A stretch of 63,134 nt of DNA, the filler included, from Craspedostauros australis (lineage: Eukaryota), in the NCBI GenBank assembly GCA_030167865.1. It is 5 parts of 5 records of this genome, joined end to end, with 100 filler letters (N's around TTAATTAATTAA, not from the genome) between each part and the next. Parts side by side here need not be neighbours in the genome. Positions count along the whole stretch, not along the records: positions 27,858 to 53,732 come from JALAGF010000147.1; 4 more parts are not named here. One strand, 5' to 3'. Position numbers and translations under genes: made by a program. Below are positions 1-60,210 of this stretch, in pieces; within the stretch, counting starts at the first letter, position 1; each line of letters opens with the position of its first letter. The notes beneath the pieces were generated by a model. That model searched no databases. It was not told the DNA's origin and saw only the letters and a program-made list of their open reading frames with translations.

Positions 1-998
1 CACCCCTTCTCCATTGTATGTAGTATGGAGAGTCTGGTCTCTCGTCCGCGTGGCAACAAAGAGAAAACGTGCAGAGAATATCCGTGACAAACATTCGAAA
101 CAGCTCAGTTGTCAAATGTCAGAGAGCGAATGCAGCTCAAGTTGTTCCATATGTGTAGTAGCTTCAATACCATGGTCAATGCTGACCGATCCGGGTGGTG
201 CCTTACATGTCCAGCGTTCGAAGATAGAACTCTGATTGCAAACATCTTCAATGCTATCGATACCATGATTCGCATAGATGTCTCGATTACTTGTTTTCGA
301 CGAATAGCCAACCTTGAAGCAGGCATCTCACAATCATTGGCCTATTTGTTATTCCACTCAACGATGTCAACCGGTGCAAGAAGTGTGAATGTAGCAATGA
401 GAAGGAGGCCATCGATGTTCTTTGCCATCCAGTACACTCAAAAATAAGAAGTTCAGGTGATTTTACGGAGGAGGAACATGCGATGGAAGTATGATTTTAA
501 CGTGGAGCAGTGCAACCGAGTGCGTGCCTAAGTACGATGTACACTTTTGTGCTAATCAAACTCAGGACTGCGTTTTCAGAAGTCTAACATTGGGTAGACT
601 TTGGGTAGACATTGGTCGTCTGTCGTGCATACGTCAGGTTCTTGAGCATACCGAAGTTTTCGGTGTGATATCCAACTATACGGCAACCTCCTTGTTCCTC
701 AGCTTTCCTCGCGGCGCAGCCAAGTGTCCTTGGCATTGGCATCGGCGTCCACCAACTGCGCCACCAGTACGAACCGCACGCTATTATCATCCACCCGACA
801 ATCATTTGGAGTTCATTCCATTGGTCGAGGAGAGCAGAGTTATGCACAAGTATAATATTATATCTAATAGAATAGTATAATATAATACCATGGAAGCAGA
901 ATAAAGCAAACGAAGAACGGCAGAATCCATGCACAAAGCAACCAAGACGAGAACTGCCAACACCTTTACATTCTCATACTCGCACCAGCACCAGCACC

Positions 999-2498
999 AT
1001 GGTACCGTCTATCCACGCCCGTTCTGCCACCTCCGGAGTGTATGGTAACAAAGCATTCACCATCTGTGTGGTCGTTGCCATCGCCATGATTGATTGGAGA
1101 AAGGCTTCACTGCAATTGAAATCATTAAGTCATGATGACCTCTATTTGGACTCGTACACCTTCCCATCCTCAAACTTGGACTCAGCGAGCTTGGCGGGCA
1201 ACAGCAGCAACGCAAGTCAAGGGGCTGAATCAATGCCTCGATGGACCGGCAACATCACAGAATTCCCTCCATTCATGATGCAGTGGCCAACCGATACGTT
1301 CGGGCCAGATCAATGTAACATTCTGAATACCTCAATTCCATACATCTTCAATATCACTGACTATCCCACATCGTACGATTTGGGGGACGTCTTTGGCGTC
1401 GTCCATGGTAATCTCACCGAAGCCTGGCATCAAGCTGAGATTGCAGCGAAGGAGGGCAATCGTACAAATGGGGACGTGCCACAGGTCCCAGACGCTCCTT
1501 CCAACCAAATCAAGACTGTCGCCTGCAGCTTGATCGATTACAGCGTCATCAGTCAGTTCCCGCATCAGATGCAACACATTTACCCGTGCTGGTCGCTGTG
1601 GCGGCACTTTCCGGGCGCCAAACACTTCTTCTTTCTTCGTCCAAAGCACCTTCAAGGCCTTTTGACTGGCTCCGTCTACAACGCCGGCATAACGAACGTA
1701 TTAAGAGCCAACAATATTTCCATCGTCCCCATGACGATGAAGAACTTCGTACGACAGCACCGGTCCGACGCCAGCGAACTCCTCGTCGCGTACTCACATC
1801 GAGTTGGCGGTTATCGATCGGTTTCCGAAGGTGACATGCAAGATCTTGGAAAGCGGGCCTTGACTTCGAATGGTTTGGACGTCTACACCAAGCAGGGTTG
1901 TGATGCGGCTCACCGGGACGACAAGCTCGCAGCATCGCCACCAGCAGCCTTCAATGATGAAATGAAAGGAAAGAGCGGTTCGTCGGAATATTCCAACCCA
2001 CTCCATCCACCGCGCATTGCTATTGCCAATCGCAGGGACAGGAGGCGGTTGCTTGGCGCGCACAACGTGTCAATTCTGTTGCAAGACGAATTTGGGCTGC
2101 CGTACAGTCCACCAGTTTTCTTCCTCGAGGACATGACATTCAAGCAACAGGTGGAGGCCTTCGCCAGCATTGACATCTTATTGACGCCGCATGGTGCACA
2201 GCTGACATCGGTTCCGTTCATGCCCCATTGCAGCTCACTGGTCGAGGTGCTCCCGCGTGCCTACGATTGGAATGAGTTCTTTGGAACGTTGGCAGCTATC
2301 TCTGGTGTGAATCATTCCTACAAATACCTTGGGACAGATGTGGCCGCGGAAACTGAACCTCTCCGCTCATCCCAAGGACAAGAAATCGCACGCTCAACCA
2401 TTCTGTGCGCGCCAGCAGACCCCATGATAGAAGCCGTCAGGATACAAATGCACCGATGGCAAGAGTGCTGCGGGTTCGCGTGGTCGTCCGTTCGATAG
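999..2498 (+). CDS. Glycosyltransferase family 61 (DUF563) type II membrane protein
   Basis: 499-aa ORF with an N-terminal hydrophobic anchor (AFTICVVVAIAMI) and the GT61 signature region RIAIANR...MTFKQQVEAFASIDILLTPHGAQLT...LVEVLP. Confidence 0.85.
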   Translation: MVPSIHARSATSGVYGNKAFTICVVVAIAMIDWRKASLQLKSLSHDDLYLDSYTFPSSNLDSASLAGNSSNASQGAESMPRWTGNITEFPPFMMQWPTDTFGPDQCNILNTSIPYIFNITDYPTSYDLGDVFGVVHGNLTEAWHQAEIAAKEGNRTNGDVPQVPDAPSNQIKTVACSLIDYSVISQFPHQMQHIYPCWSLWRHFPGAKHFFFLRPKHLQGLLTGSVYNAGITNVLRANNISIVPMTMKNFVRQHRSDASELLVAYSHRVGGYRSVSEGDMQDLGKRALTSNGLDVYTKQGCDAAHRDDKLAASPPAAFNDEMKGKSGSSEYSNPLHPPRIAIANRRDRRRLLGAHNVSILLQDEFGLPYSPPVFFLEDMTFKQQVEAFASIDILLTPHGAQLTSVPFMPHCSSLVEVLPRAYDWNEFFGTLAAISGVNHSYKYLGTDVAAETEPLRSSQGQEIARSTILCAPADPMIEAVRIQMHRWQECCGFAWSSVR

Positions 2499-17430: not shown

Positions 17431-18239
17431 TGTTGGCAAGTTCTGTGATTGGAAGCCTACGATCGTGGAAGACGGTGTTGGTTGATATTCGTTCTGTTTG
17501 CTATTTCATTAGTTGAGCACTCTAATCCTCTTGGTGTCTCCGTTCTCTTGCCCAATGCTCTTGGCACGTTAATATGTTTTGTAGATTGGGTCTCCAACTA
17601 TGAGTTGGTGTGAGAGATGCTCTCTTGCTGCTATTTGTATTCTCTCTCTCTCTCTCTCCATATCATGTACTTGCATGACACTATACTTCTCGTTCGATGC
17701 GTATTCCGCATTCGACACTCCTTTCATTCAGTACTGTCTTCTACTCCAAGAGTACTTACCATTTGAACTTCATCTCCCGTATCCATGATCCTGATGTCCT
17801 TTGGTCATCGGATCTTTGCCTCCTGCTCTGACCTGGAGACAGATGTCGACGTGGTGACACGATGACATCCTGTCAACGTCAGTAGGCGTCCTTCTGCTCT
17901 CCAGATGTCATGTTCCATTGGTGATGCAGTAGTCTGTCAGATGATATCGTCATCTGAGGTTTAGTTGGGAAGTACCTTGAGATTCGCTTGGTACCATACG
18001 TCTCCATTGATGGATGGATGGACGATATTTCCAATTCTCTCAGAAATCGTCGATTGGAAATTTCCTCCAGAAAGTCTGCTCATTTTCGTGTGTTCCATTT
18101 CCACTGTAATTCTGACAAATCACAGCATACTATTGACACGAATGTAGTTGTACCGTTCGTACATGAATAAGAGATTAACAGGTGAACGATGCACATATAC
18201 ACGTACATGTCGACATATACTCACATGTACATCTCGACA
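17431..18239 (-). mobile_element. Solo LTR-like element, copy 1 (~809 bp)
   Basis: Reverse complement aligns end to end with 60634-61435; termini TGTCG...CAACA on the minus strand; interrupts the MULE ORF. Confidence 0.75.
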
Positions 18240-19157
18240 GATGTGGTACATGCAACACGTGTGAGTGATGCCCCATCCTACCAACATCGTTTGCACTTCG
18301 CCACTCTCAAGGCCCTTCGCACCATCGCTCATGAGCAGGCGCACGTTTGGAAAGCTGTCCCTCACATGATCAAGGAACCATTTCCAGTTGCTTGCTGTTT
18401 CAACAGGGAGAATGCCAAACGCAAGAATGACGAGTTGGCGTGATGCATCATAAGCAGTCAGGAGGCACATGTAACCCTTCACTGCAGATCGAAGGTGAGT
18501 GGCATCCACACACACCATGCCATCGAAATGAGAGAATGTCTTGATGCTTCCACCAGGTGCACAAAAGACGTGGCGCAATTGCATTCCATCGTCACCATTG
18601 ATGTCACCTTGGACTGGACCAATGTCAACCTTGTACGCTCCTCCACTGTCTTTCTCGGCCAAAGCACCGATGTAGGACCGAATCAATTTGCACTCAGCCA
18701 AGTGCTTCTTGATTGTAACTCCTTTGTCCCTGATGATATCGTAGAGCTGCCCCTTTTTCAGCGTGATGGACAATTCGTTCTTGATCATGTTGCCCAGTTG
18801 CTGACGTCCACCCGCAGCAGGAACTTGATACTTCCCAATGATGTCAGTCATCTCGTCCAAGATGGCAGTTTTGTAGCTTGCCTTGCGGGTACATGTGCCC
18901 TGACAAGCATGGCCAACGAAGTGCGTGATGCGGACCCCTTTGCCATTCTTCAAGAGACGAGCATGGCAGTCGAAGGGACAGTCGGTAGCATCAGAGCACA
19001 CGAGCTTGATTGCATCGCCTGACCTCTTCTTTTGAATGTATCCGGCACCAGCAGGCAAGCTGTGCGACAATACAGCCGCACAAACATGAATGAAGTCCAC
19101 TCCTTCCTTTTCCGCTCCCTTTGCAAGGGTGATGAACGATTTGCTGTTGCTGGACAT
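18240..19157 (-). pseudogene. MULE (Mutator-like) DDE transposase, 3'-truncated
   Basis: MuDR-type CSDATDCPFDCHAR...HAC, then MULE core VCVDATHL...AYDASRQLVILAFGILPVETASNWKWFL...LMSDGAKGL...HTCCMYHI; homology stops at the LTR boundary. Confidence 0.85.
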
Positions 19158-19584
19158 GCTGGTTGTTGAACAGTTTGATGCGATTGTTGTGTTTGCTACG
19201 TTGGATGCGATTTATGTTATGGCTCGGCAGCCTGTTGTTTTGCATGCTCAGATGGATGCAGTGCATTTGTATGGAGCCACTCGATGATACATTTGGTCAG
19301 AACACGATCCATGGCGCAAAGAATCGGAGCAAATGGATGGATGATGCGCATATCTACGACTAAAGTAGGCATTAATTCCCTTCATTGGATGTCACATATT
19401 CGTATGGATTATTTACTTGCATTCTATGATGAGTGTGTCACATTTATATGATGTGGTTTGTCTTTTTCGTGCGTGTTACAGGTAATCTACATTCATGTGC
19501 TAACCTCGGATGTCGACAAGACATCTCTGTGTCCATGGGATGTCGCATCGACATTTGGACGTTTTGACACTTTAAGTAACACAA

Positions 19585-19777: not shown

Positions 19778-21240
19778 ATGCCAACGCCTCCAAACACATG
19801 GCTACCGTCTATCCATGGCGTGAACACGAGGCAGAAGCTCGTTTGTGCCATCGGCTTCACGATCGTATTGACGAATTTGAGGTGGTCTCAGCAGACATTG
19901 GGAGCTTTCACAATGCCAACCATTGGTGCCTACAGAGATGCCGTCGTCGACACTTCAACAGAAGCAGTTTCCAGCCACTCTCTTCGATGGAATAGCAACA
20001 TCACGGACTTCCCATCCTTCATGCTGCAATGGCCAACCGATACATTCGAACCAGACCAATGCGATATCATGAACGCTTCAATGCCGTACATCTTCACCAT
20101 CACCAACTATTCTAAATCGTACGATCCGGAGGATGCCTTTAGATCTTTTACGGTAGCATCACTGAAGCATGGAAGCAAGGCGGTGCTTCAATGAAGGAAG
20201 TCAATCGCACGAATTCGACGAACGTTGCCATCGGTCAAGTCAAAACAGTCGCGTGCAGGATAGGCAACCCATACGGGATACGCCACTTCCCACATCTGAT
20301 GCAAAACTTGTACCCATGCTGGCCGTTGTGGAAGCACTTCCCAGACGCTGAACACATCTTTTTTCTTGGCAACCATTCCTCCAAAAAGATGTTTCGTTGG
20401 TCTGTGTTAGGCGCTACAACTCTCAAACTGTTTGAAGCAGAGAACGTTACGTTCATCACCACGCCTCAGCAGCACTACATCGAAGAATTCAAAAATCGCC
20501 CCAACGAGCTGCTCTTTGTCGGGGCGAAGATCGTGAGTGAGCACTGGGATGTTGTGGAGGCAGGTGGTTACCGAGCTCCCCACGAAGACGACATGTCAGA
20601 TTTCAGGACGCATGTCTTGAATCTATTTGGGTTAGGCCGTTACGTCAATCAAGCTTGTGGAATGACTTCCCAGTCTGATGCGCATGAGGCATCTCCAAAA
20701 TTGCTGGGAACCAACGGCAAAGCAGACACGGGCGATGGCTCAAACGCCCCAACACGCCGCCCACCACGCATCGTCATCGCCAATCGTTTCAAAACCCGGC
20801 GATTTCTCCGAGCGCACAACATCTCCATGCTCCTGCAGGGGGAGCTCAATCTTCCGTACAGACCTCCCGTTTTCTACATCGACAACCTGCCAGCCGAACA
20901 GCAACTGGAGTTATTCTCCAACATCGACATTTTGCTGACACCGCATGGAGCGATGCTGGCAAATACACCATTCATGCCTCGTTGCAGTTCAGTGGTCGAA
21001 GTGATCCCGCGCGCCTATCCTCTTGGAAGATACTTTGGATCGCTGGCTGCAATATCCGGTGTCAATCATTCCTATGTCTACCTTGGAGAGGATTTGGTTG
21101 CCGACACTGTAGGTTGGAGAACGCGGGAGTTGCAAGGCCGTGCGCGCTCAGTTCCACTATGCGCGCCAGTGCATGCGCTCATAGAGGCAGTGAAGATCCA
21201 GGTCGATCAGTGGCACCAGTGCTGCGGATTTGCCGGTTAA
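19778..21240 (+). pseudogene. GT61 paralogue of 999-2498 with a -1 frameshift near 20141-20149
   Basis: RWNSNITDFPSFMLQWPTDTF matches copy 1; homology (YGSITEAWKQ vs HGNLTEAWHQ) continues in another frame into ORF 20191-21240 containing IDILLTPHGAML. Confidence 0.8.
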
Positions 21241-21486: not shown

Positions 21487-23463
21487 TTAGAAACTCCACA
21501 GGAGCTTCTCCTTCGGCAGCTTATACTTCGGCCGCATCGTTGGTCCGTACGTCGCGTTCAGATGGCGCAAAAAGTCCTGGTAGCGCACCCGGTTGTACGC
21601 ATTGTTGTGGTTGCGACGATCGTTGCTCACCACGGAATGATCCAGATGAGACGCCCACACTTGCCGCAGTGTGGCGAACTCGTAACCGTCCAGATGAAGC
21701 TCGATGAACCACGAGAACTTGTTGTATCCATACCCGCGAAAGCTGCTCCAAAGCTGGGGCAGCCGGTTGACCCTGCCATCGTTCCGATCCAGATTACGGC
21801 GGGACGCCAGCACGTACGGCTCGAACTGCAACCTGTACCCGATGTGAAAGTACGGGTCCGACGTCGGCTTGTCCGCCTTCGCAAATCGCTCCCATCTGCC
21901 ATAATTCGTCGGTAGGTGCCCTTGATTCCACACGTCTAGCTTGAATCCCATCATGCTGCCTTCGTGCACGCGGCTCACCACCTCCAGCGGAGTTTGCGGC
22001 AGCGTCGCATCGCCGCCGTCATCTCGGGCGAAGACGGAATAGGCGGGCACGACGAACACCACCTTGCGGGTGCGCAGGGCATCGCGCAGGGGATATTTGC
22101 CTGCATCGAGCTGACGTTGGAATCGTCGGTTGGCTTTGGCGATTTCATCCTTGCTGCGAGTCTCCTTCTTGTCATTGGTGCTGTCTCCCACTTTTGCGGA
22201 TGGCGATGCATGTCGTTCGTGTTGCGTCCCGTCCGCGTACATGTTCAAGTTTGGAACCAAGTCGCCCTTCACGCCATCGGGCCTGTCTGCATTCGGTTCC
22301 GCCGCAACGATGGAATCGCACGAGTACAGCTGTTCATGCATGTTGGGATGGATCCGCCGGATCAGCGCATCGTGTAGATTGGGCGATGGGATCAAGTCCA
22401 CATCCAACCCGACGAAGTAATCGGCACCGCAATGATTCATAGCAAGATTCCGCAGGATGTTGTGCGGATACGACGATCGGATGATCTGTTCGAACTTGCG
22501 CCGCTTCTCGGTTGCGGAAGATGGCGACGTCATCGTCATCGTCATCACGTCCCCGCGAGCTCCACCCTCCATGACGACGTGGAACGAGGCTTGGTTGAGC
22601 AAGAAGGCGGCATCGGATCGTTTTGCATCATTCTCGTCACCATAACTGTGTTGCCATCGAATTCGCAGTTCATGCACGAAGTCCCGGATTTGTTCGACGC
22701 TGGCAATGTGCACAACGATCGACGATGGTCCATTCCAGTACTGCAGCTGCAGCATGAGGTTGGCAAATTTGGGCACGCTCAAATGCGTGCAGAGCACGAC
22801 ATCTTCCGGATGCAAAGTCGGAAGGCTGCGACGCCGAATCACGTTGGGAAGCTCCACTCTTGAGACGTTGAGAAACGCAGTTTTCGCCGACCCCGCATCA
22901 TCCCACTCCATCCGCGCGGATTCGATGGCCTCTGGAACGAAAATGCGCGCGTCGGCATCCTTCCATTTCTCGATGAGGGATTCCTCCAACCGCCGAAAGA
23001 ACTGCTCATCCGGTGGAGGTATTCGCATCAACTGCATGGCGCGTACAGTGTGTGACGATCTTCCCGTGGCATCCCAACTTTCTGTGCGATCCAATGATGT
23101 CCATTTGTCGTCGCCTCGTCCCCCACGGCTCCTCGTTTCATCCATACCATTCGCTACGTAGCTGCCTCCCGTCTGCGATAGCAGCAGCGCACCGTCCAGC
23201 ATTCGATTGCACAGGAAAAAGTAACCATACAAGCCAACGATAAGGATGCCAAGTCGAACTGACATTGCCCGTGATTGGCGATTCTGATCCCCCCTTCGTC
23301 CACCAGCATCCTGCTGCACCGCCATTGGTGAGATTGGCGAGATTGCTGACATTGGTGGGAGTGCATGGCCATCTCCGCTGTCGCCGTAGTCGTTGCGACT
23401 GTCACTGACGCTGATGAAGCCGTTGTTGCCCACATGCCGTCGTTGGAGGCTTTGTTGTAGCAT
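21487..23463 (-). CDS. Glycosyltransferase family 49 (LARGE/B4GAT1-like)
   Basis: N-terminal TM; YPHNILRNLA, DxD motif (GLDVDLIP), VFVVPAY, FEPYVLA, FRGYGYNKFSW. Confidence 0.85.
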   Translation of the reverse strand: MLQQSLQRRHVGNNGFISVSDSRNDYGDSGDGHALPPMSAISPISPMAVQQDAGGRRGDQNRQSRAMSVRLGILIVGLYGYFFLCNRMLDGALLLSQTGGSYVANGMDETRSRGGRGDDKWTSLDRTESWDATGRSSHTVRAMQLMRIPPPDEQFFRRLEESLIEKWKDADARIFVPEAIESARMEWDDAGSAKTAFLNVSRVELPNVIRRRSLPTLHPEDVVLCTHLSVPKFANLMLQLQYWNGPSSIVVHIASVEQIRDFVHELRIRWQHSYGDENDAKRSDAAFLLNQASFHVVMEGGARGDVMTMTMTSPSSATEKRRKFEQIIRSSYPHNILRNLAMNHCGADYFVGLDVDLIPSPNLHDALIRRIHPNMHEQLYSCDSIVAAEPNADRPDGVKGDLVPNLNMYADGTQHERHASPSAKVGDSTNDKKETRSKDEIAKANRRFQRQLDAGKYPLRDALRTRKVVFVVPAYSVFARDDGGDATLPQTPLEVVSRVHEGSMMGFKLDVWNQGHLPTNYGRWERFAKADKPTSDPYFHIGYRLQFEPYVLASRRNLDRNDGRVNRLPQLWSSFRGYGYNKFSWFIELHLDGYEFATLRQVWASHLDHSVVSNDRRNHNNAYNRVRYQDFLRHLNATYGPTMRPKYKLPKEKLLWSF

Positions 23464-24433
23464 GACCGCACACCTCTTGGAATTGCCTCGCTAGATGGAC
23501 TGTGACGCAGATGAGGCAGAATGTCTGCAGGAAGGAGGAAGGTAATAACATTCGGCCGGCGGAAAGAGCAGAGCGCGTGTGGGTCGCACACAGGAGGATC
23601 ATCGCGCAGCCATCAAGAAACAGATGTGCCTGCTCTGTTTTGCATCACGATTCCGAAAAGATACCCTCCGGCGTGACCTGTTCGATTAAAAAGGTGCGAC
23701 ACGTCTTTCTTGTTTCTGCGCAGTTTTTGTCGTCTTCGTGGTTGTTGATCAGTCAGATTGTTGACACGACCAAAACGCTGAATCCGATGAGTCCAACGCT
23801 CCGATGGCGCCATCTGATGGGCAAACAGACGAAAGATCGAATCGTCGCAACGTCATTGAGCGTGCGTACGGCTGTTCCAACAAAGGAGTTCGTTGCTTGG
23901 TGGTGCACACCAGCGGTTTGATCGTTCCCCGCCAAATCTCGACACATCACATCAACTCAGTGCACATCACAACACCGCACATCACATCACCTCAGAGCAC
24001 ATAACATCACGTCGCAGTACAGCACATCATCGGGGAACCACTGCTCTTGGGAACAAGCGAAGAGCCACGAGCTACGAGAGACGAGCAATCGCAGTGTTAT
24101 CATCTTTCCCAAAGCGGCATCGCCTTTTCGTCCTGCTTGACTCGCACATCGGAAGCAAGCGGAGACGACAATTGCGCACGGCTGCGTTGAGTTACTAATA
24201 CGTCCAAGAAGAAGCCCAACACACCACCAACTGATCGATTGGCAGTCAACGAAAGCTTCTCGAATCGGAAGATACTGCTCTCTATTGGTAGAGTGGGCAC
24301 TCGTACTGATACCACGCTCCGACTAACGAACCGAAACTCACATGATCGATTGATCGGTACATTGACTCATTATCGATTGCAATACTCTATCCATTATTGA
24401 CTCGCTCCACGAAGCAACTCGAAATTTCGCAAC

Positions 24434-27757: not shown

Positions 27758-27857
27758 NNNNNNNNNNNNNNNNNNNNNNNNNNNNNNNNNNNNNNNNNNN
27801 NTTAATTAATTAANNNNNNNNNNNNNNNNNNNNNNNNNNNNNNNNNNNNNNNNNNNN
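27758..27857. other. Artificial scaffold join (N44-TTAATTAATTAA-N44)
   Basis: Identical 100-nt spacer occurs four times; TTAATTAATTAA gives stops in all six frames. Confidence 0.95.
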
Positions 27858-35450: not shown

Positions 35451-36038
35451 GTGGGGCTTGGCGGTCCCTCTCCTGGTTGACTTGTCTGCGCACAAAGAAG
35501 ATGCAGAAGGTCCGAACACCTGCTGAACACCTCCTGCTGTGGTCGGCTGCTTCTGATTCCTCCTCTCTCTGCGCCATCGCACACAACCAACCAACGAATT
35601 TCTCGGCGAATCGCCCATCACATCCACTCGCACAAACATCACTGCGCGCACTCTTCAGCCACCCGCTCTGTTCTTCGTGTTCTTTGTTCTCCGCGTTTTC
35701 CGTTTCGAACCGAACACCGATTGACACCATTCAGTCATGAAATCGAAATCAGTCATGAGTGAGTTATGCGTTATTGGACGGTTATAGTTTTGGCGCCATG
35801 AGAACCCTTTCTGTTCCAATCTTCTGCATCAAAGACCAAAGATACTGGTGACAATGACCGATCCCATCGTCGCCGATGACCACTCCCTTGCGCATCGTGG
35901 ATGCAGGAGTGAGAGTGGACGAAGCAGTCGAGCAGAGTGGCATGTGACACAGCAACATTGTAGCATAGCAACATCGCAGCATATTGTAGTCCTCTTGCCG
36001 GATGTACCACAACACTGCGCAAGGCACAAGCATCAGTC

Positions 36039-38180
36039 ATGACGACAGCCTCCGCTGAAAACGAAGACTGCGAGAATGGATGTGCGACTGCCACACCGAC
36101 GATCGGCTTCGATGTCATCCTGCGCGTGGATGGCAGTGATCGCATGGCCAAGCATGGCGACTGCGAGGTGATCGCCGACGGCTCCACATCATGCGATCGC
36201 AGCGAGACGTTCACGCTCATCCGTCTGTCATCATTGTCGCGACAGCGCGGCGCGAGGAAATCAGACGGTGCCAATCCATCGAATGCTTGCGCGCAGGATG
36301 AGGAATCCGCGTTGGCGCAACTGTGGTTGGGACAAGGATCCGGCATCCTGAATCAGCAATGGCCTCGCGGGGGTCCGATTGCTGTGTACCGAGACAAGCT
36401 GCTGTCACCGCCGTTGCCATCCACCGCGACCGCGTCGGAACAAGGAGGAGGCACACATGGCCCGTCGTCGTCGCACTCGGACACTGGAAGCAATTCGATG
36501 CATGCCGAACCACTTCACTGCTGCGATGCGCAGTATGCCCTGCCATGCAGCTACTTGATGATTCGAAATGGAGAAGAATGTATTGGGTAGGTCATGATTT
36601 CGCGTGATGCTTGCACATCGTGTTTCTGCTGGCTATTTGAGGGTTTCAGAGCCAAGGAAGGTATTGCATATACCCATGTAGCTGCCACAGCGACAGCCAT
36701 GCTGTTGTACTCGTATCTCATCGCATGCAACATGCTCCACGTGTTTCGCACTCAACTTTTTCACGTGGCGCCCCGCAGGCATGGCAGACTCACGGATTGC
36801 TTCGAAGGCGCAGGCGGCAACGCTGCCGCCGTCACGTACCTCATGATCCATCCCGAAAACCGAAAGTCCGGGTACGGCAGGATGCTCATGCGCATGCTGG
36901 AAGCGGAAGCCGTGCGATTGGGGTATCACTACATCTACCTGTGGACGCAGACGGCGATCGGCTTTTACGAAAGGCTTGGGTATCAGCACACGCACCGCGT
37001 GTCGCTCTACCGCGCATGCTTAAAATCGTTGGATGTCACACAAATTTCCTCGTTGGAAGGCATGCTGCTGCGGATGCAATCAAAGAACGGCAAGAGTGCG
37101 TCGGCCGCGGCAAGCGCGAAGGCGGAGACCATCACGTTGCTGCCAGATGATGCGCCCGATCAGTCCGCATCGCAAGAAGCCGCTCCCGTGGAAGATGTGT
37201 GGCTCAAGAAGCGATTGGTGGAAAGGGTGGGTGCACAGAGCATACCGCTGATACAACGGAAAGATCAATTGACAAAATATCTGCAGAACTATCCGTCAGA
37301 AAAGGAGACAACAGTGGCCGACAAACCACCGGTGATACCTGCGTCGTTCAAGGTCTGGCTCAATTCCGTCCCATGGCAGCAGCAGATCGGACCTTCCTGC
37401 GGATTGGCAGCATTGCGGATGGTCCGGGACTACTTGCACGAGAGATCACCGTCGACGCAGGATGACAGCAAGGCAGGAGCAACAACAACAACAACACCCA
37501 CGGCTATGCCATCGTTGCTGGATGCTGCTCAATCGCGTGGCTTTTCGTCGGATGGCGAAATCTTTGACATGAACAATCTGCGCACGCTGGCCGAAGAAAT
37601 CTGCGGCATTGACTGCGAGATGAAAGCCATCACGAAATTGGACGAGACGGATACGCAATCGTCGGCGTTGGCCGTCGCTGCTGATATGCTAAGGACGCTG
37701 CAGCAGGATGGTCTCGTTATCCTTCCTTACGATTCCAACTCGCGCACGCGGGCGCCGTGCAACTTGCATGGATTCGGTGCCCATTACGGCATCGTGGTGG
37801 GAATGATCTTGCGCGAAAGAAACAAAGGAACGGTTGAGATTGAAAGTGACGGTGTGAATGACGAGGCATCCAAATGTGCGCTCGTCATCGAAGACGAGAA
37901 CGACATGGCGCCCTTCAAAGCGCTGACTGCACAAGACCTCCTGCCGGCATCACACACGAAAGCCGACTGCATTCGTGACGACAACGGCGCACCATGCATC
38001 CAAACGAATATCCATTTGCTTGTGCAGCATTCCCTCTCGCAGCAGTTCTCCATCGCTCCGTTGGGCACATTCCTCGACAGCAACGCGCAATTGAACGAAG
38101 TCGATAGTTGCAAGTTCTCCGGTGTCAAGCGATTGGATCTGCGCAACAGGTACATGCATTGCCGCGGAATCATTCAATAG
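36039..38180 (+). CDS. NAA80-like GNAT acetyltransferase fused to ACTMAP-like (C19orf54/UPF0692) papain-fold cysteine protease; 2 exons (36039-36586, 36779-38180)
   Basis: Intron 36587-36778 (GG|gtaggt...cgcag|G) restores CIG-HGRL; GNAT motifs ILNQQWPR, RKSGYGRMLM, FYERLGY, WLKKRL; protease motifs QQQIGPSCGLAAL, AQSRGFSSDGEIF, LVILPYD...PC...AHYGIVVG, VQHSLS, SNAQL. Confidence 0.8.
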
Positions 38181-38686
38181 AGCGTGCCTCTTTGATAAAG
38201 CATAATAGAGTAGAGTGGGTGGGTAGGGAGATGCTCTGGGAGATTGAGGTTCTCTGCTGGGTATGTTGTGTTGACAACGATGATCTACGAACAAAAGTCT
38301 AAATTATGTCGACACTAAGGAAGTACATTTGAGCACACAGGACTAACCTGGATACGTGACTGGCATCTTTTCGTTCTCCCATTTCGGCGAATGCTCACGA
38401 CTCGGTGGCAGGCCTCGATTGTGACGGATTGGTGATGGACGAGTCTCCGACAGCAGTAGCTCCATTCTCCCATGACCCATGTGATGATGGACACACTCAG
38501 ACTCAGACTCAGACACCATACTCGTACGCCATGCTCGTACGCCATACTCGTATGCCATCGAGCTTGCGCAACATCGAGGACATGATGAGGTGATGTGATG
38601 CGACGCTTGAGAACTATCCGACATCATCATCATCATCATCAAACCCAGCCTTGCTACAATCGCTCTGGGGCGAAGGTGTCACCGTC

Positions 38687-41242
38687 ATGCCAATGTCCAT
38701 GCCAGCGGCAGCGGAAGATGTTGGTACTATCACCGCCAGTCGCAACGGAAGGGGCTTCAAACGATTCACGGTTTACGCCATCTTTGGTTTGGCTCTAATA
38801 GTCTTCACAGCAACCACGAACCTTCGGATTGTGACGAATTCGAAAGAGGCATTCAATCGATGGCAGCAACAGGAGCAGCAGCAGCCGCATGGCCAGTCCA
38901 ACCTCCATTCGTCTGAATCCGCTGCGCCAGAGAGTTCATTGGAAGCATTAGAATCATCGGACTTCTCACTTGCGAATGCTGATGTGAATCTGCAAGACAA
39001 TGCGATGGTACCGACCATAGTCACCATTCTGTTGGATCATCGATCGCGTGGTGCATCGAACGCAGCGCAGCAGGCGAGCATTCGCAAGCTGGATGAGTTC
39101 CTCTCCACCTTCAGAAATTTGCACGATGATGATGATGATGATGCAGGAAGCGCAAGCAGCCACAACACCAAAGTGCCATTCGGGGCATTCGACAAGTACA
39201 GATCAGGTCTCGTTCACTACCGATTTGCTCAGCGGGTCAATTTCGTCAAGGTGGACAGACTAGCCATGGTCGCGGGCAGTGCGAACTCCGGCTGCCTCCT
39301 GGCGAGTTCTTACATTACGGATGCACACGAGATGGCTCAGCACCAGTATGACCACGCACCGCACTGTCATTTCTTATCGGTAGTGCCGGTTGCGTCAGGG
39401 GGCGTTGCCTATGAGATCGTTGCACCGCGACCTCGCTCTGATGGCACTGTAAACCAACATCCACAAGGGCAGCATTTGCAGGAGCAGCAAGTAGCGTGTC
39501 TCTTGCGTGGAAACCAGCAACATCCGTGGCAACAGCAATCATTCTGGTTCGCGGACACGGCGAGATCACCGATCGCCAACGCCATCCATCGTTTCAACTG
39601 TGCAGGCTATTGGACAAATCGACCATCATCCCAAAGGCAACAGCGCATCACGATCTATCTGCCATCTACCGACGCGGCTTCCGATATCCGCCAACAAATA
39701 CAAGCCACTCTGGCAGAACCTCAAGCGACAACAACACAGCCCGCCGAACGGGAACTGAGCATCGCGTACGTGCAATCGAATGACGTGGTATTCACCTTGA
39801 CGGAAGATGAAGCAAACAATCTGCCGACGACGCGACTTGATTTCGACTATGTCAAATTTCTGCTGAATACCACTATCTCCGTCATCGTCGTTGGAGATGC
39901 CGCTGCCGAACCTGCGTCGAATGTACAGGACACCAACGGACTGCCGCTGGCGGTGCACATCCAAGAGATCCTGGAGGCCGGATCGCTGCCAATCATCTTC
40001 AACATGTCTCCTCAATCGATGCGTTGCCAGTCATTTCCAACGTTGTTTTGTCTGGGTGGGAACACCGATGTTTGTCAACAGAATGGGCCAAAACCAGCTG
40101 CAATACGGTCCGATGACCCAACGCAACAAGGGATCCACGGGACAGTTGGTGGCAGTGACAGCGATGGCATGCAACGACGATCCATCATTCTCGAAGTTCG
40201 GTCAGTCAATGAGCTGCAAACTCAAGTGCGAGGGCTCTTGCAGGATGCGGAACAGATGGATCGATATCAAAAGAGAGTATCGGATTGGTACGAGAACTTC
40301 ATGATCCGCAGCATCTCGCATTTCGAATCCAATTTGATCAATTCGCCATCAAGACGAACTACCTTCGAAACGAAGGCAAAGGGTAGAATGCTTCAGACCA
40401 AGTCGCGCCTGAACGACTACCAAAGTCAAGCCCATCCGCAGCACAAACAGGCTACTCGTACGTTGCCGTTCTGCCTGGAGGCCTTCTACGGCAGATCGAA
40501 CAATCGCATCATCACCCTTGCGAAGGCCATTCACTTCGCCAATCGATACAACACGACCCTGGCCCTCACGGATGAATGGTCGGAATGGTATTCGCAAGTC
40601 TTTGATCCCCGTGACGATATTTTCCATGGATATCATCCGTACGGTAAATGCGGCAGGGTGCTGCGGGGGATACGCATGTACTTCACCAAACTCCCCAATC
40701 CGTTGCCAGAACTGCGCTCGCTGATACCGAAACGGTCGATCCGCGAGGAAGCGGAAGGCATTCTGCAGCGGATCGCATCTACTTTCGGCACGCGGGAACA
40801 ATCGTCAGCAGCGTCATCATCATCGCAAGAGACTGGCCGCTTCATCTCCGTGCATCGCAGAGACCTGGAAGGGACGTGTTTGCGCCGCGCTGGCTGTCTC
40901 GAGTATCGCTCCAAGGCATGCCAGGAGCGCCGACCAGACGACCATCCCTGTTCCACGACAACCGTCCAAAAGATGTGCAAAGTCGTGCAACCGGACATCC
41001 ACAATCCCGACAGCCTTCCCATCATCCTGTTCACGGACGGCCAGCGACCAGAGTATGACGACACCTTTGCGATCGCCTTCAATAATTCCTGGGCATCGTC
41101 CTTCCTCGTGCAACAGTGGGTCATGACGCAGTCGCAGATTCACTACGGCAATCCATTGTCCACGGTCGACGATGCGATTCATCATTGGAGACATGCGAAG
41201 CCTACGGAACCCGCGCAATGCTATCCGGTTCTGGATGATTGA
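38687..41242 (+). CDS. Type II membrane glycosyltransferase: degenerate GT47/RXYLT1-like middle region plus C-terminal O-fucosyltransferase-like (GT-B) domain
   Basis: TM VYAIFGLALIVF; QEILEAGSLPII...YQKRVSDWY; GRSNNRII, FISVHRRDLEG, ILFTDG, QWVMTQSQIHYGNPLSTV. Confidence 0.65.
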   Translation: MPMSMPAAAEDVGTITASRNGRGFKRFTVYAIFGLALIVFTATTNLRIVTNSKEAFNRWQQQEQQQPHGQSNLHSSESAAPESSLEALESSDFSLANADVNLQDNAMVPTIVTILLDHRSRGASNAAQQASIRKLDEFLSTFRNLHDDDDDDAGSASSHNTKVPFGAFDKYRSGLVHYRFAQRVNFVKVDRLAMVAGSANSGCLLASSYITDAHEMAQHQYDHAPHCHFLSVVPVASGGVAYEIVAPRPRSDGTVNQHPQGQHLQEQQVACLLRGNQQHPWQQQSFWFADTARSPIANAIHRFNCAGYWTNRPSSQRQQRITIYLPSTDAASDIRQQIQATLAEPQATTTQPAERELSIAYVQSNDVVFTLTEDEANNLPTTRLDFDYVKFLLNTTISVIVVGDAAAEPASNVQDTNGLPLAVHIQEILEAGSLPIIFNMSPQSMRCQSFPTLFCLGGNTDVCQQNGPKPAAIRSDDPTQQGIHGTVGGSDSDGMQRRSIILEVRSVNELQTQVRGLLQDAEQMDRYQKRVSDWYENFMIRSISHFESNLINSPSRRTTFETKAKGRMLQTKSRLNDYQSQAHPQHKQATRTLPFCLEAFYGRSNNRIITLAKAIHFANRYNTTLALTDEWSEWYSQVFDPRDDIFHGYHPYGKCGRVLRGIRMYFTKLPNPLPELRSLIPKRSIREEAEGILQRIASTFGTREQSSAASSSSQETGRFISVHRRDLEGTCLRRAGCLEYRSKACQERRPDDHPCSTTTVQKMCKVVQPDIHNPDSLPIILFTDGQRPEYDDTFAIAFNNSWASSFLVQQWVMTQSQIHYGNPLSTVDDAIHHWRHAKPTEPAQCYPVLDD

Positions 41243-41785: not shown

Positions 41786-44700
41786 TTACAGCTCCTGCTT
41801 GATGGCATCATCAGGTTCATCGGCCGCCTCCGGTTTGCCCTTCTCGGCGCTCTTCTCTTTTCCGGTGTCGCCAGCATCGTCGCCGTCGGCGTTATCAACG
41901 GCGTCGGGATCTTCTATACGGTTGGCGGTCCAGTCGCTTTCAAAGTTCACGACGCGGTTGATGCCCCGTGGCATGTCATCCCGCAATTCGCGAACCCACT
42001 TGGCCTTGGTCAGCTCCTTCAGGAACGAATCCGCCAGTTTCTTCCTCTCCAGCGTCGACCAAACGTTGACGGTGGCGTGCGTCTTTCCATCCCACAGCAG
42101 CATGGCGGTGCCGCTGGCATGCTTGGCCACGACGAACAGGGCACTGCCCATTGGCATGGTTTGCTTCACGGTGGCGCCGGTATACTTCTTTTCGAGTGCA
42201 TCCACGAAGGTCTTCTGCACAGCGGCATGGGTTTGGTCGGCCGATCCCAAATTCAGCTGCAGGATCGTCTGTCGACCGAGCGGCTGCTGCGTCATGAACT
42301 GCGTGTTGGAATCGGTGGCGTCGTACGCGGATGGTGGGAAGTTGTGGGGCTGGTACTCACCACGCTCCTTCGCACGAGCCATGCCGCCTTGGATGTTGCG
42401 CACGTTGACGGACATGGATGGCAGAAGCTCACGCAAGTTACTTTCGGCCTCATAAACTTCATTCAGCGCACGCGCATTTCCCGACACGATCATCTCCATC
42501 TTCATGGCACGGTTCGTGTCCTGCAGTTGAAAATCAACGCGGAAGAGAGGATCCATCTTGAGGAAGCGGAAGTGGTTTGTGAGCAGAGCATCGCGCCACT
42601 TCTCTTGCTTGGTTTCTTGCCCCGGCATCAGGATGGTGTACTGGGGCGCCATGAAATGCGTCAAGGCCTTCTGGTTGGAGAGGAAGCTGCGGAAGATCAT
42701 GCCCGTGTGCTTGTCAGCGTTCACATCCAGAACGATAGCGGCGATGTATTCGCCATCCTCCAGCCGTTCGTCGACGAGTTGGAACAAGTCGTACTCGCAC
42801 CCGTACAGCTCTCTGTACAGTTTCTCTCCCACAGAATTGGTGGGCACGTCGCAAAAGAACAAGACGGACTTGACTTTGGTCTCGGTTTCATGGAACCCCG
42901 CTTGTGCTTCGCACGGCGTCGTTGATGACCCGCACAAGATCAGCACGATGTTCTCGTCTTCTCCGTCTTCATCCTCATCAACGTCTTCGCTGTTCAGGTC
43001 ATCCACCATCACCTGGAGGAACGAGTTGCGGATGGTCGTGGCGTTCAGCTCCTCCTTCGCTTGCGGTAGTTGTGCCACCTCGCAGTTGCGGGTGTGCTTG
43101 GTGAGGTCGATGCCAATCTCTTCGCCTTCGTCGGCACCGTAGATGCCAGACACGATGACGCGGTAGCTTGCGACTGCCAGCTGCGCGTTGGTGGCCTTGG
43201 TGATCTGGGTGGCACGATTCTCAAGATCGAGGAGCTGGTTGAACGATTTCCAGAGCATGACATCGACGGCGGCGTACTTTTGCTCAGGCCAGTGTCGAAT
43301 GTTTGCGTATCCTTCCTTCATGATGATGGTCACGCCGTCGGCATCGTGTTCCACCGTGTTTTGAATGGTGAGGCCGACGCTCTCGAGGGCGGTTGTGATT
43401 GCGAGCGTTGGGATGGAGTCACATTTCTCCATGTCCAGCACCAGCAGGATGCCCTTGCTTCTCGACGTCAGGGATGATTTGGTCTTCTTCGACTCCTCGA
43501 CGGCCTGTTCGTAGGCACGGCACTTGCCTTCCTCCGTGGCATTGTTGATGCCGAAGTCGTGGACGAGGTAGAAATGGTCTGGGAGATCGTCGTACTCTGG
43601 TAGGATGAGCAGATCACCATCGAGCTGGTGGTTCACCAATTCCTTGTGGAACAGGTCGATGCCGTTGCTGCCGATCACCATGGTTTGGTCGCAGATCATG
43701 GGGCAGTCGTAGTACTGGAACTCGAGGGAGTAGTCGAAGGTGCGGGACATCTTTTCGAAGTACAGCTCGTTCTTGAGCATGACACCATCCGGCTTGAGGT
43801 ACATGGAGAGCGCCTCAAGAACATCAAGATGATCCGTCACGGTCAGGCTGGCCACTGTCTCGGACAGGTCCACGACGATGAGATCGAACGAGTTGGCCCA
43901 GTCCTTGGGAAGAAGGAGCAACGATTTGGTGGCATCGCCGAACCACCATTGCACGCGCTCGTCATCGAAATGTGGCTGGCTCTGGAACCATTTGAAGGAG
44001 GTTCGCACCACCTGCTGGTCCAGCTCCAGTCCCACCACCACTTCCAGTTCGGGATACTTGAGCACCTCGTGCAGGATCATCGCATCTCCACCACCGATGA
44101 ACATGACTCGCTTGACGGAGTCGATGTAGCGTGCGGCGTAGTGAACGCTGTACTCGTGGTAGTGCGGACGGTAATTGCTGCAGATCTGGACTGTGTCATC
44201 CAGATCCATGCAGATGTTGCCATCCTTCTTTTCGGTCCCGTCCTCGTTCTTTTCCACCTGATAGCAGATGGCTTGGTACTCGGTGGCGAAGTCCTCCGTG
44301 ATTTTGTAGTCCTCAAATCCCAATTGTGCATCCACGTCGCACGATTTACCTTGCTTCTGGAAGCCGTGTGGCTTGGTCTGTGGGTGGTACAGACCCGTGT
44401 AGATGCATGTGACATCGCCATCGTCATCGTCATCGTCGTCACTCTCGTCATCGTCTGCCCCCACATTGTAGCACTTGATGGTTGTGGACTTAATGTTCTC
44501 GATGGCGAGCTTGAGTCCTTCGACGGTGGCGCTGACGTATTGCATGGTACTATTCCATTCTGCATCCGCGACTACCATGTCGTGGCTCTCCTCCCACGCC
44601 TCCTTGCCATCGTCGAAATCAAAGAGCTGCAATCGGTTGAGGCGGTAGAAATTCTCCAGCGCACCTTGGAATTGCTTTCTGGTAGGTTCATACTCCTCGC

Positions 44701-46012
44701 CGCTATTGACGTCGGGCTCGTCATCCTGCAGATCCTCGTCATCCGGATCGTCGATTTCGATCCATTGAAAGTCGATGATCCCATCTTCGTCCTTGCGCAC
44801 GACGAAGCCGTACTCCTCCTCCATGAAAATGAACCGACGTGGGTACTCCTCGATGAATCCGTGATCACGGAATATCTCTGAATAAATCGTTCACAATGGA
44901 TGGAGTGGTGAATGCATCTCATGGCAACATGGTGGGAAACAAGCGTGGAGAGAGATGGCAGAGTATCACGCAGTACGGTCAGAAGAAGCATGTTCATGGT
45001 GCATGTGACACGGAGAAATGACGTTAACACTCATGAGACAGCATCAAACATAGGACATGCACAGGTACGCATGCGTCCATCACTCACCTGGCATACCGTA
45101 GGTCTCCCGCTTCAGACCGCAGGTGTGGCACAGATTGTAGGACTGAATGAGCTCCTCGCCCTTGGAAATGTCCTGCATGGCGACGACCTTGATGGGATCG
45201 ACGTCCGTGCCGCTATCGGTATTATTTTCGTCCAGAACAAAATCGATCTCGACATTGGTGGCGTATCCGTTCTGATGACGGTACCATTCGGTACCTGGTC
45301 GCAGCTCGTTGATCTGACCATGGGCTACGACCCACGCCACGGCCTGACGAATGTCGGACATGGTAATGTCCGCGTATGGGATTTGCTCGCAATGCTGCAG
45401 GAAGTCCTCGACGAACCACGATGTTGCATCGACGGGTGGCAGGCGGTATTCCTTGGGCATGTATTTGAGCTTGTGTCCGATGACGGAGTCGAAGAGAGCT
45501 CTGCCACCCCGGCTCCAGAGGCTTGGGATGGCATGCTCCTTGGCGTTGGTGAAGACGTACTGCACGTACGGACCGAACACGATGTCCTCAATGTCGAGCT
45601 CGAGGTTGTGATCTTGTCGGACCTGATCGAACCTGTCGTCGTAGATCTTGTCGATGGCATTCTTCTGTCGCAGCAGGTAGTGGATGAGGCCGCAGCGGAT
45701 CAGGGCCTTGTCGTCGGTGTTGTTCTTGTAGGTGGCATAATCCATTTGCGCGTCGCCATCGATGATGGTCTCGACTGGCAGATGCAGCAAGACGTCGCCT
45801 TCCTCGATGTCCTCGAGCGCGTACATGCGGCCATCGTCACGCAGTTCCTGGTTTGGGTTGACGTATCCGCCGTTGGCTTGGATCCATTCCACGAGTTCCT
45901 TGTGGTGCACCTTGGGAATGTTGATTTCCTGCGCCCCGTTCACGCTGGTGCAAAGCACGGAGAGGGTCGCCAGGATCGCAAGGGAAGAAACCTTCATGAT
46001 CAGTCTCTTCAT
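41786..46012 (-). CDS. Signal peptide-SET-like domain-aminopropyltransferase (spermidine synthase fold)-two AdoMetDC-like domains; candidate long-chain polyamine biosynthesis protein; 2 exons (46012-45088, 44877-41786)
   Basis: Intron 45087-44878 (G|gtgagt...ttcag|AG) joins the ORFs in frame; SET-like LVEWIQANGG, YALEDIEEGDVLLHLP, VAMQDISKGEELIQSY; APT RVMFIGGGD...GLELDQQV...GDA...FDLIVVDLSE; AdoMetDC-like HWPEQKYAAVDV; ends KQEL. Confidence 0.85.
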
Positions 46013-53483: not shown

Positions 53484-53987
53484 GAGCCCGATCAGTGAGT
53501 CGACCTGCACTCCGTTATTGGCGTCTATAAAATTTATCTTGAATATCCCAACCAAGCACATATTCGTAATCCTTGCAGGTCTAATACAAATAATTAACCG
53601 ATGGATTTTTTAGTTAGATCCTATTTTAAGTTTTATACATATTCAAATGTTTTGTGAAGTCGTATGGGTCGACCCCCGTGAACTTCCTAGTTGTTTCGCA
53701 GAAAGTTCGATTATGTTCTCGTGCATTTACCCNNNNNNNNNNNNNNNNNNNNNNNNNNNNNNNNNNNNNNNNNNNNTTAATTAATTAANNNNNNNNNNNN
53801 NNNNNNNNNNNNNNNNNNNNNNNNNNNNNNNNTCCATAAAACTTAAAATGAAACCAAGTAGAATCTGAAAGGGTCCACCATATGTAAATAGACTACGAGG
53901 ATTATGTATATGTTATTAGTTTAAAAATCCCAGAAAAACGACTAGACTCTTCATTTCAAACAGTTGGTCGACTCGCTCGAGGGGCTC
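53484..53987. mobile_element. DNA transposon with long imperfect TIRs (GAG...CTC ends) and 4-bp ATAG target-site duplication, Sola-like; interior lost in assembly gap
   Basis: Left end GAGCCCGATCAGTGAGTCGACC vs reverse complement of right end GAGCCCCTCGAGCGAGTCGACC; ATAG at 53480-53483 and 53988-53991; AT-rich. Confidence 0.7.
53733..53832. other. Artificial scaffold join
   Basis: N-run with central TTAATTAATTAA. Confidence 0.95.
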
Positions 53988-58605: not shown

Positions 58606-58705
58606 NNNNNNNNNNNNNNNNNNNNNNNNNNNNNNNNNNNNNNNNNNNNTTAATTAATTAANNNNNNNNNNNNNNNNNNNNNNNNNNNNNNNNNNNNNNN
58701 NNNNN
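58606..58705. other. Artificial scaffold join
   Basis: N-run with central TTAATTAATTAA. Confidence 0.95.
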
Positions 58706-60110: not shown

Positions 60111-60210
60111 NNNNNNNNNNNNNNNNNNNNNNNNNNNNNNNNNNNNNNNNNNNNTTAATTAATTAANNNNNNNNNNNNNNNNNNNNNNNNNNNNNNNNNN
60201 NNNNNNNNNN
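60111..60210. other. Artificial scaffold join
   Basis: N-run with central TTAATTAATTAA. Confidence 0.95.

Follow-up and report, generated by a model that had tools for sequence, protein, structure and literature searches.

Does a single gene of the diatom Craspedostauros australis encode both an enzyme that trims the N-terminus of actin and one that acetylates it afterwards? The question arose from a locus on the plus strand at positions 36039-38180 of a 63,134-nucleotide stretch of the genome (hereafter the window; five parts of assembly GCA_030167865.1, joined end to end with filler), for which a sequence-only reading had proposed that removal of one canonical intron joins two open reading frames (ORFs) into an NAA80-like acetyltransferase of the GNAT family followed by an ACTMAP-like cysteine peptidase. 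In animals, ACTMAP cuts off the first residue of actin in its acetylated form, after which NAA80 acetylates the acidic residue now at the N-terminus (PMC11735805, PMC13557074), and actin is the only known substrate reported for both enzymes (PMC11735805). We find one spliced gene whose predicted product carries both domains, and we find the same domains fused in the same order across distant eukaryotes.

With the intron removed, the two-exon gene encodes a protein of 649 amino acids with a single terminal stop. Its parts are as follows.

36039..36586, plus strand: exon 1, which has the start codon and encodes a little-conserved N-terminus and then, from about 36321, the N-terminal half of the GNAT domain, up to ...ECIG
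36587..36778, plus strand: intron of 192 nucleotides, GT..AG, starting with GTAGGT and ending with CCGCAG, with an in-frame TAG at 36588-36590
36779..38180, plus strand: exon 2, with the second half of the GNAT domain, a linker and the ACTMAP-like peptidase domain, closed by a TAG stop codon at 38178-38180

Read without splicing, the locus presents an ORF at 35964-36590, closed by the TAG at 36588-36590, and next to it, in the same frame, an ORF at 36591-38180. The second frame is continuous, so that no stop separates the two domains, as had been proposed, and all of the peptide strings quoted in the sequence-only reading were found in the translations. Across the splice junction, NGEECIG from exon 1 is followed by HGRLTDCF from exon 2. 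Among 40 homologues, 111 columns show conservation of 90% or more, and the spliced protein retains 106 of them, G183-H184-G185-R186 over the junction itself among these; the conserved columns of exon 1 are L104, Q107, W108, P109, Y117, L168, S171 and Y172. Four intronless metagenomic relatives (L001, L002, L004 and L005) are colinear with the spliced protein, their genomic DNA running in one stop-free frame through the junction (for example ...CAGHGRLTECFENAGG...); L006 also aligned across it, but with three stops in its high-scoring segment pair. The metagenome scan was made with alignment A2, which returned 25 loci, and the same kind of scan with the single window protein gave no matches. 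The proposed intron, and with it one spliced fusion gene, is confirmed by these sequence comparisons as more than a chance arrangement. Retention of the intron as a coding form was considered and rejected, as a stop would follow directly after Gly183. The N-terminus of the protein is acidic, and no signal-peptide-like stretch was visible when the sequence was read by eye.

We then asked what each half is. For the C-terminal half, the domain and its putative catalytic residues are listed here, with counts taken over the aligned rows that cover each column.

37347..38177, plus strand: ACTMAP-like papain-fold cysteine peptidase domain, predicted from a PF21646 match, the modelled fold and the ESM Atlas
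37383..37385, plus strand: Gln385, which precedes the nucleophile by five positions; Gln in 260 of 260 rows
37398..37400, plus strand: Cys390 (in GPSCG), the proposed catalytic nucleophile; Cys in 260 of 260 rows
37731..37733, plus strand: Asp501 (in LPYD), which may serve as a third catalytic residue or in substrate binding; Asp in 261 of 261 rows
37782..37784, plus strand: His518 (in AHYG), proposed to act as the catalytic base; His in 258 of 258 rows

The Pfam family ACTMAP-like_C (PF21646) matched residues 200-343 of P0002 over profile positions 4-121 of 121 (E = 7e-19; 68.8 bits, the cut-off being 27). Peptidase_C39 (PF03412), the family against which the proposal had to be set, remained below its cut-off on exon 2 (13.6 bits versus 22, E = 0.059) and has only the fold in common, and DUF3335 (PF11814) gave no Pfam match on exon 2 at E values up to 1. 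An AlphaFold model of exon 2, built from a 56-row alignment, showed a papain-type fold with a mean predicted local distance difference test (pLDDT) score of 82.6 and a predicted template modelling (pTM) score of 0.84. Its neighbours by VIA-align, over residues about 150-466, were Alr0975 (2btw, Z 14.6), the C39-like structure 3erv (13.3), the PCAT1 peptidase (12.8) and UfSP1/2 (about 11.7); a sequence search of the PDB found no ACTMAP structure. The nearest ESM Atlas clusters of this half are chordate and ACTMAP-like, with a score of 0.97. The codons of Cys390 and His518 lie exactly where a putative catalytic pair had been predicted, and in 56 fused proteins, drawn from four groups, Cys390 does not vary. 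By comparison with papain-like peptidases, we take Gln385 to be the likely oxyanion-hole residue. Profile, modelled fold and predicted catalytic residues thus place the C-terminal half in the ACTMAP-like family. Human ACTMAP is described as resembling bacterial cysteine proteases, with C132 as its nucleophile (PMC13367750); the correspondence of Cys390 to C132 rests on the Pfam match and not on a direct alignment.

The N-terminal half is divided between the two exons, and three of its features are needed for the comparison with NAA80.

36360..36362, plus strand: Trp108 of QQWPR, aligned with Trp36 of Drosophila NAA80 (DmNAA80); Trp in 155 of the 155 relatives that cover the column
36861..36878, plus strand: RKSGYG, acetyl-CoA-binding motif (R/Q-x-x-G-x-G), assigned from Pfam GNAT matches and conserved in relatives
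37200..37217, plus strand: WLKKRL, which the model shows as the final beta strand of the GNAT domain, after a low-confidence insertion

Pfam GNAT families matched residues 12-72 of P0002 in exon 2 (Acetyltransf_7, 3.7e-10; Acetyltransf_1, 2.4e-9), and in 228 aligned rows the acetyl-CoA motif has its R in 200, its first G in 203 and its second G in 217. When exon 2 alone was used in a single-sequence search of the PDB, YpeA (9e-5) ranked ahead of Drosophila NAA80 (3.3e-4), and NAA80 did not stand out from other GNATs. Because exon 2 contains only half of the GNAT domain, we built a family profile (A1) from 40 full-length fused homologues. Against 177,635 PDB sequences this profile placed Drosophila NAA80 (5wjd, 6.5e-11) and human NAA80 (6nas, 1.7e-9) on top, both aligned along the entire GNAT fold, xQWPR helix included; a Bacteroides fragilis GNAT followed at 2.3e-6, ordinary GNATs at 2e-3 or worse, and NAA20 at 0.04. 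The fold comparison gave the same order: for an AlphaFold model of the relative P0007 (pLDDT 76.6), the top five Foldseek matches were all NAA80 (1e-8 to 5e-8), and GCN5 came next at 1.6e-6. The nearest ESM Atlas clusters of this half are arthropod and chordate NAA80. Better matches to other GNAT families had been named beforehand as the outcome that would speak against the proposal; what came first by both profile and fold was NAA80, which is the nearest solved acetyltransferase to the modelled N-terminal half, a closeness that rests on the family profile and on P0007 and not on the window protein alone. The third-best PDB match, the B. fragilis GNAT (9y12), aligns from end to end of the fold, the first-helix Trp included, and hints at bacterial relatives of the NAA80 type.

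The residues that bind acidic substrates in DmNAA80 include W36, R43, K73, E87 and S88 (Goris et al., PMC5924903), and we related these to the window protein after converting PDB chain indices to the numbering of that paper (index +9, checked on A42/R43). W36 and R43, in the alpha1-alpha2 region, bind substrate residue 2 (PMC5924903), and Trp36 corresponds to the invariant Trp108; K73, which contacts substrate residue 3, corresponds to Arg186 of GHGRL, and human NAA80 has Arg there too. The column of Tyr203 (36837-36839) holds Tyr in 86, Ser in 84 and Phe in 37 of 228 rows, and this split may mark subgroups with different substrate N-termini. In the WLKKRL strand (residues 140-145 of P0002, block pLDDT 95), the W, the K and the R hardly vary among 56 fused proteins, and NAA80 chains align over model residues 1..146. 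With WLKKRL as the last GNAT strand, the peptidase domain follows the GNAT domain almost directly.

How widespread is this arrangement? Precomputed Pfam annotations showed both a GNAT family and PF21646 in 84 of the 96 first matches. When we ran two domain hidden Markov models of our own on 272 database proteins, 221 had both domains, 44 the peptidase only and 7 the GNAT only; the set includes near-identical copies, for instance eight entries from Toxoplasma strains and 15 from a single peptidase-only cluster, and many of its single-domain rows come from gene calls that are short or cut at the N-terminus. The order was GNAT followed by ACTMAP in every fused protein (221 of 221). Complete MMETSP/EukProt transcript ORFs of relatives are also fused, which bears out, in relatives only, the claim of one product instead of two separate mRNAs. 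Because 221 of the 272 proteins are fused, always with the GNAT domain first and with complete transcripts among them, the fusion is by sequence comparison not an artefact of the gene model. Searched exhaustively with a profile, 1.84 billion representatives yielded 1596 proteins at E <= 1e-3, 697 at <= 1e-10 and 199 at <= 1e-30, and the best 150 of the 1596 were taken on. A FastTree phylogeny (LG+gamma, 441 columns, rooted at the midpoint) was restricted to the 126 proteins with near-complete coverage of both domains; in it, the window protein falls within the diatom clade, beside P0023.

Among named database entries, the fusion is carried by the diatoms Epithemia, Cylindrotheca closterium, C. 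fusiformis, Nitzschia and Mayamaea and by Bacillariaceae metagenome-assembled genomes; by the haptophyte Chrysotila carterae; by the coccidians Toxoplasma gondii, Hammondia, Besnoitia and Cystoisospora (the Neospora entry has the peptidase only); and by the hydrozoans Hydractinia symbiolongicarpus (P0236, 503 amino acids) and Hydra vulgaris (P0243, 472 amino acids), where it is annotated as uncharacterized. The fused protein of Cylindrotheca closterium bears the UniRef name "Actin maturation protease". The coccidian fused entries P0134 / P0217 (Toxoplasma gondii, 779 amino acids), P0227, P0135 and P0173 are labelled only as "acetyltransferase, GNAT family protein". The fusion is not special to the stramenopiles, where diatoms carry it, being found also in a haptophyte, in coccidia and in hydrozoans. 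Because hydrozoans carry the fused form, the assumption that animals keep the two enzymes as separate genes does not hold for all animals.

The analysis shows how the gene is built, what its two domains are, that the catalytic residues are conserved and that the fusion is widespread with a fixed order. On this basis we favour with moderate confidence the reading that one spliced gene gives rise to a cytosolic bifunctional enzyme of 649 amino acids, which performs ACTMAP-like trimming and then NAA80-like acetylation of the host actin. We infer that both domains are active, that actin is their substrate and that the fusion couples the two steps. In the first step, the C-terminal peptidase (Gln385, Cys390, His518, Asp501) would take the acetylated first residue off newly made actin, that residue being acetyl-methionine or the acetylated residue that remains once Met is gone; in the second, the NAA80-like GNAT domain would use acetyl-CoA to acetylate the newly exposed acidic residue. 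The fusion would give equal dosage and proximity of both activities. That the GNAT domain and the peptidase form one compact unit is hinted at by the order of the domains, which is always the same, by the conservation of the strand at their junction and by the high pTM of the exon 2 model; a complex prediction of the GNAT part against the peptidase part of P0007 scored 0.00 with controls not run, and is evidence neither way. Indirect support for actin as the substrate also comes from outside the animals: an actin of Paulinella (Rhizaria) was found to be acetylated at Glu3 (PMC9237673), one haptophyte actin begins with MADDEV (Table S2 of PMC5924898), and Dictyostelium processes its actin and has an NAA80 orthologue (PMC5924898).

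Several points weigh against actin maturation as the function of this gene. Matches to GNAT families leave substrate specificity unfixed. Two of the DmNAA80 substrate-binding residues differ in the window protein, where Tyr203 stands in place of S88 (a contact to substrate residue 3) and Thr202 in place of E87, and the equivalent of R43 is ambiguous, falling in a gapped loop that the conserved Tyr117-Arg118 adjoins. Drazic et al. score E. huxleyi, Plasmodium and Tetrahymena as lacking NAA80 (Table S2, PMC5924898), and the only named apicomplexan carriers of the fusion are coccidia, no Plasmodium entry having surfaced in searches that were limited. The sole public contig, of 860 nucleotides and only guessed to be RNA, is identical to the window over 37278-38137 and spans neither the intron nor the domain boundary. 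A rival reading is that both domains are real and active and that some substrate other than actin, or beyond it, has its N-terminus trimmed and then re-acetylated. NAA80 acetylates many Met-Asp/Glu peptides in vitro, its in vivo specificity coming from cellular context (PMC5924903); the position of DmNAA80 Ser88 is divided among Tyr, Ser and Phe in the relatives; and plant RbcL is matured by an analogous route of trimming and acetylation with unrelated enzymes (PMC13557074). We nevertheless regard another substrate as unlikely, since the nearest characterised relatives of both halves have actin as their only known substrate and since exactly these families are fused in a fixed order in distant eukaryotes. 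Because the same two families are joined in the same order across such distances, one shared, universal substrate is the simplest account.

A different objection is that the protein joins a generic GNAT to a generic C39-like or papain-like domain, as happens in bacteria, and that neither half is specifically kin to NAA80 or ACTMAP. Papain-like DUF3335 proteins are indeed often fused to GNAT domains (PMC10318531), YpeA outranked Drosophila NAA80 when exon 2 was searched alone, and the third match of the family profile was a Bacteroides GNAT; yet with the complete GNAT domain in the profile NAA80 leads that GNAT by about four orders of magnitude and ordinary GNATs by about seven, NAA80 is also first by fold, and the C-terminal half matches PF21646 and neither DUF3335 nor, above its cut-off, Peptidase_C39. 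We consider this very improbable. To the idea that two adjacent genes, or a pseudogene, have been merged by a chance open frame and a chance GT..AG we give hardly any credence: it can appeal to the one public contig, which bridges neither the intron nor the domain boundary at the locus, but it would have to accommodate the continuous frame at 36591-38180, the 106 of 111 conserved columns kept, the intronless relatives that are colinear over the junction, and 221 fused relatives with complete transcripts among them.

Comparison with known systems places the bifunctional actin enzyme that we favour among its closest counterparts. NAA80 (NatH, NAT6) is the animal actin N-terminal acetyltransferase, with an orthologue reported in Dictyostelium; the window GNAT domain has in common with it the GNAT fold, the Trp of xQWPR, the basic residue of GH-x-R-L and the FY motif, and differs in being the N-terminal domain of a larger protein, in a long low-confidence insertion before the last strand, and in having Thr-Tyr where Drosophila NAA80 has Glu87-Ser88. 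ACTMAP (C19orf54), the animal actin maturation protease, is like the C-terminal half in its PF21646 domain, its papain/C39-like fold and its Cys nucleophile, whereas in the window protein the peptidase sits behind a fused GNAT domain, and a variable insertion separates its His and VQHS strands. The plant pair AMPP2 and GNAT7 follows the same logic, in that first an aminopeptidase and then a dedicated N-acetyltransferase work on a single, highly abundant protein, RbcL; here, though, the two enzymes come from separate genes, the aminopeptidase is unrelated, the GNAT is a plastid one, and so is the substrate (PMC13557074). Bacterial DUF3335-GNAT proteins likewise combine a papain-like domain and a GNAT domain in one polypeptide (PMC10318531); they differ in that their papain-like domain is PF11814, which has no match in the window protein, in that their function is unknown, and in that the window GNAT domain is NAA80-like.

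Several other features of the window were noted. Directly downstream of the fusion gene is an open frame of 882 amino acids (38594-41239, plus strand) with no Pfam match at 1e-5, and beyond it one of 1034 amino acids (41789-44890, minus strand) with a spermine/spermidine synthase domain (1.4e-17), unusually long for that family. The first third of the window contains glycosyltransferase-like open frames at 876-2495 (plus), 20143-21237 (plus) and 21490-23490 (minus), two of them GT61 and one GT49. A MULE transposase domain (1.1e-10) lies in an open frame at 18123-19211 (minus). Runs of N, 44 bases each, occur as four pairs, at 27758-27857, 53733-53832, 58606-58705 and 60111-60210.

We also asked whether the fusion had been described before. 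A 2025 review presents NatH and the actin cleavage step as exclusive to animals, and neither "fused" nor "fusion" occurs in its available text (PMC11735805); a 2026 paper on Rubisco likewise treats the actin pathway as animal-specific (PMC13557074). Within the searched literature that treats both ACTMAP and GNAT, the fusion is undescribed, the only "fusion" in the available text being a His6/MBP cloning construct (PMC13557074), and our searches found no literature on an actin maturation protease in diatoms or on N-terminal acetylation of TgAct1. The suggestion that the fusion had gone unreported therefore holds in the form "not described in the searched literature" and not as "unseen", because public domain annotations already show the combination and Haahr et al. 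2022 (Science) lay outside the search. What is new here, at the level of predicted domains, is the architecture and its distribution; each half belongs to a known family.

One possible history, which we put forward tentatively and with some doubt, is that the NAA80-ACTMAP fusion arose once, in an ancient eukaryote, before animals separated from the haptophytes and from the stramenopiles, alveolates and Rhizaria, and that the separate genes of bilaterians came about by fission. If so, trimming and re-acetylation of actin would be an old eukaryotic trait and not an invention of animals, and in diatoms, haptophytes, coccidia and hydrozoans a single polypeptide would perform both steps. A link to actin-based gliding or silica morphogenesis in diatoms, which the sequence-only reading had also raised, is speculation. 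A conserved fusion would lend independent evolutionary support, of the Rosetta-stone kind, to a single substrate for both enzymes, and it would place the pathway's probable origin much earlier in the history of eukaryotes. It would also explain the Glu3-acetylated actin of a rhizarian (PMC9237673), and it would offer single-gene handles on the N-terminal maturation of actin in genetically tractable organisms.

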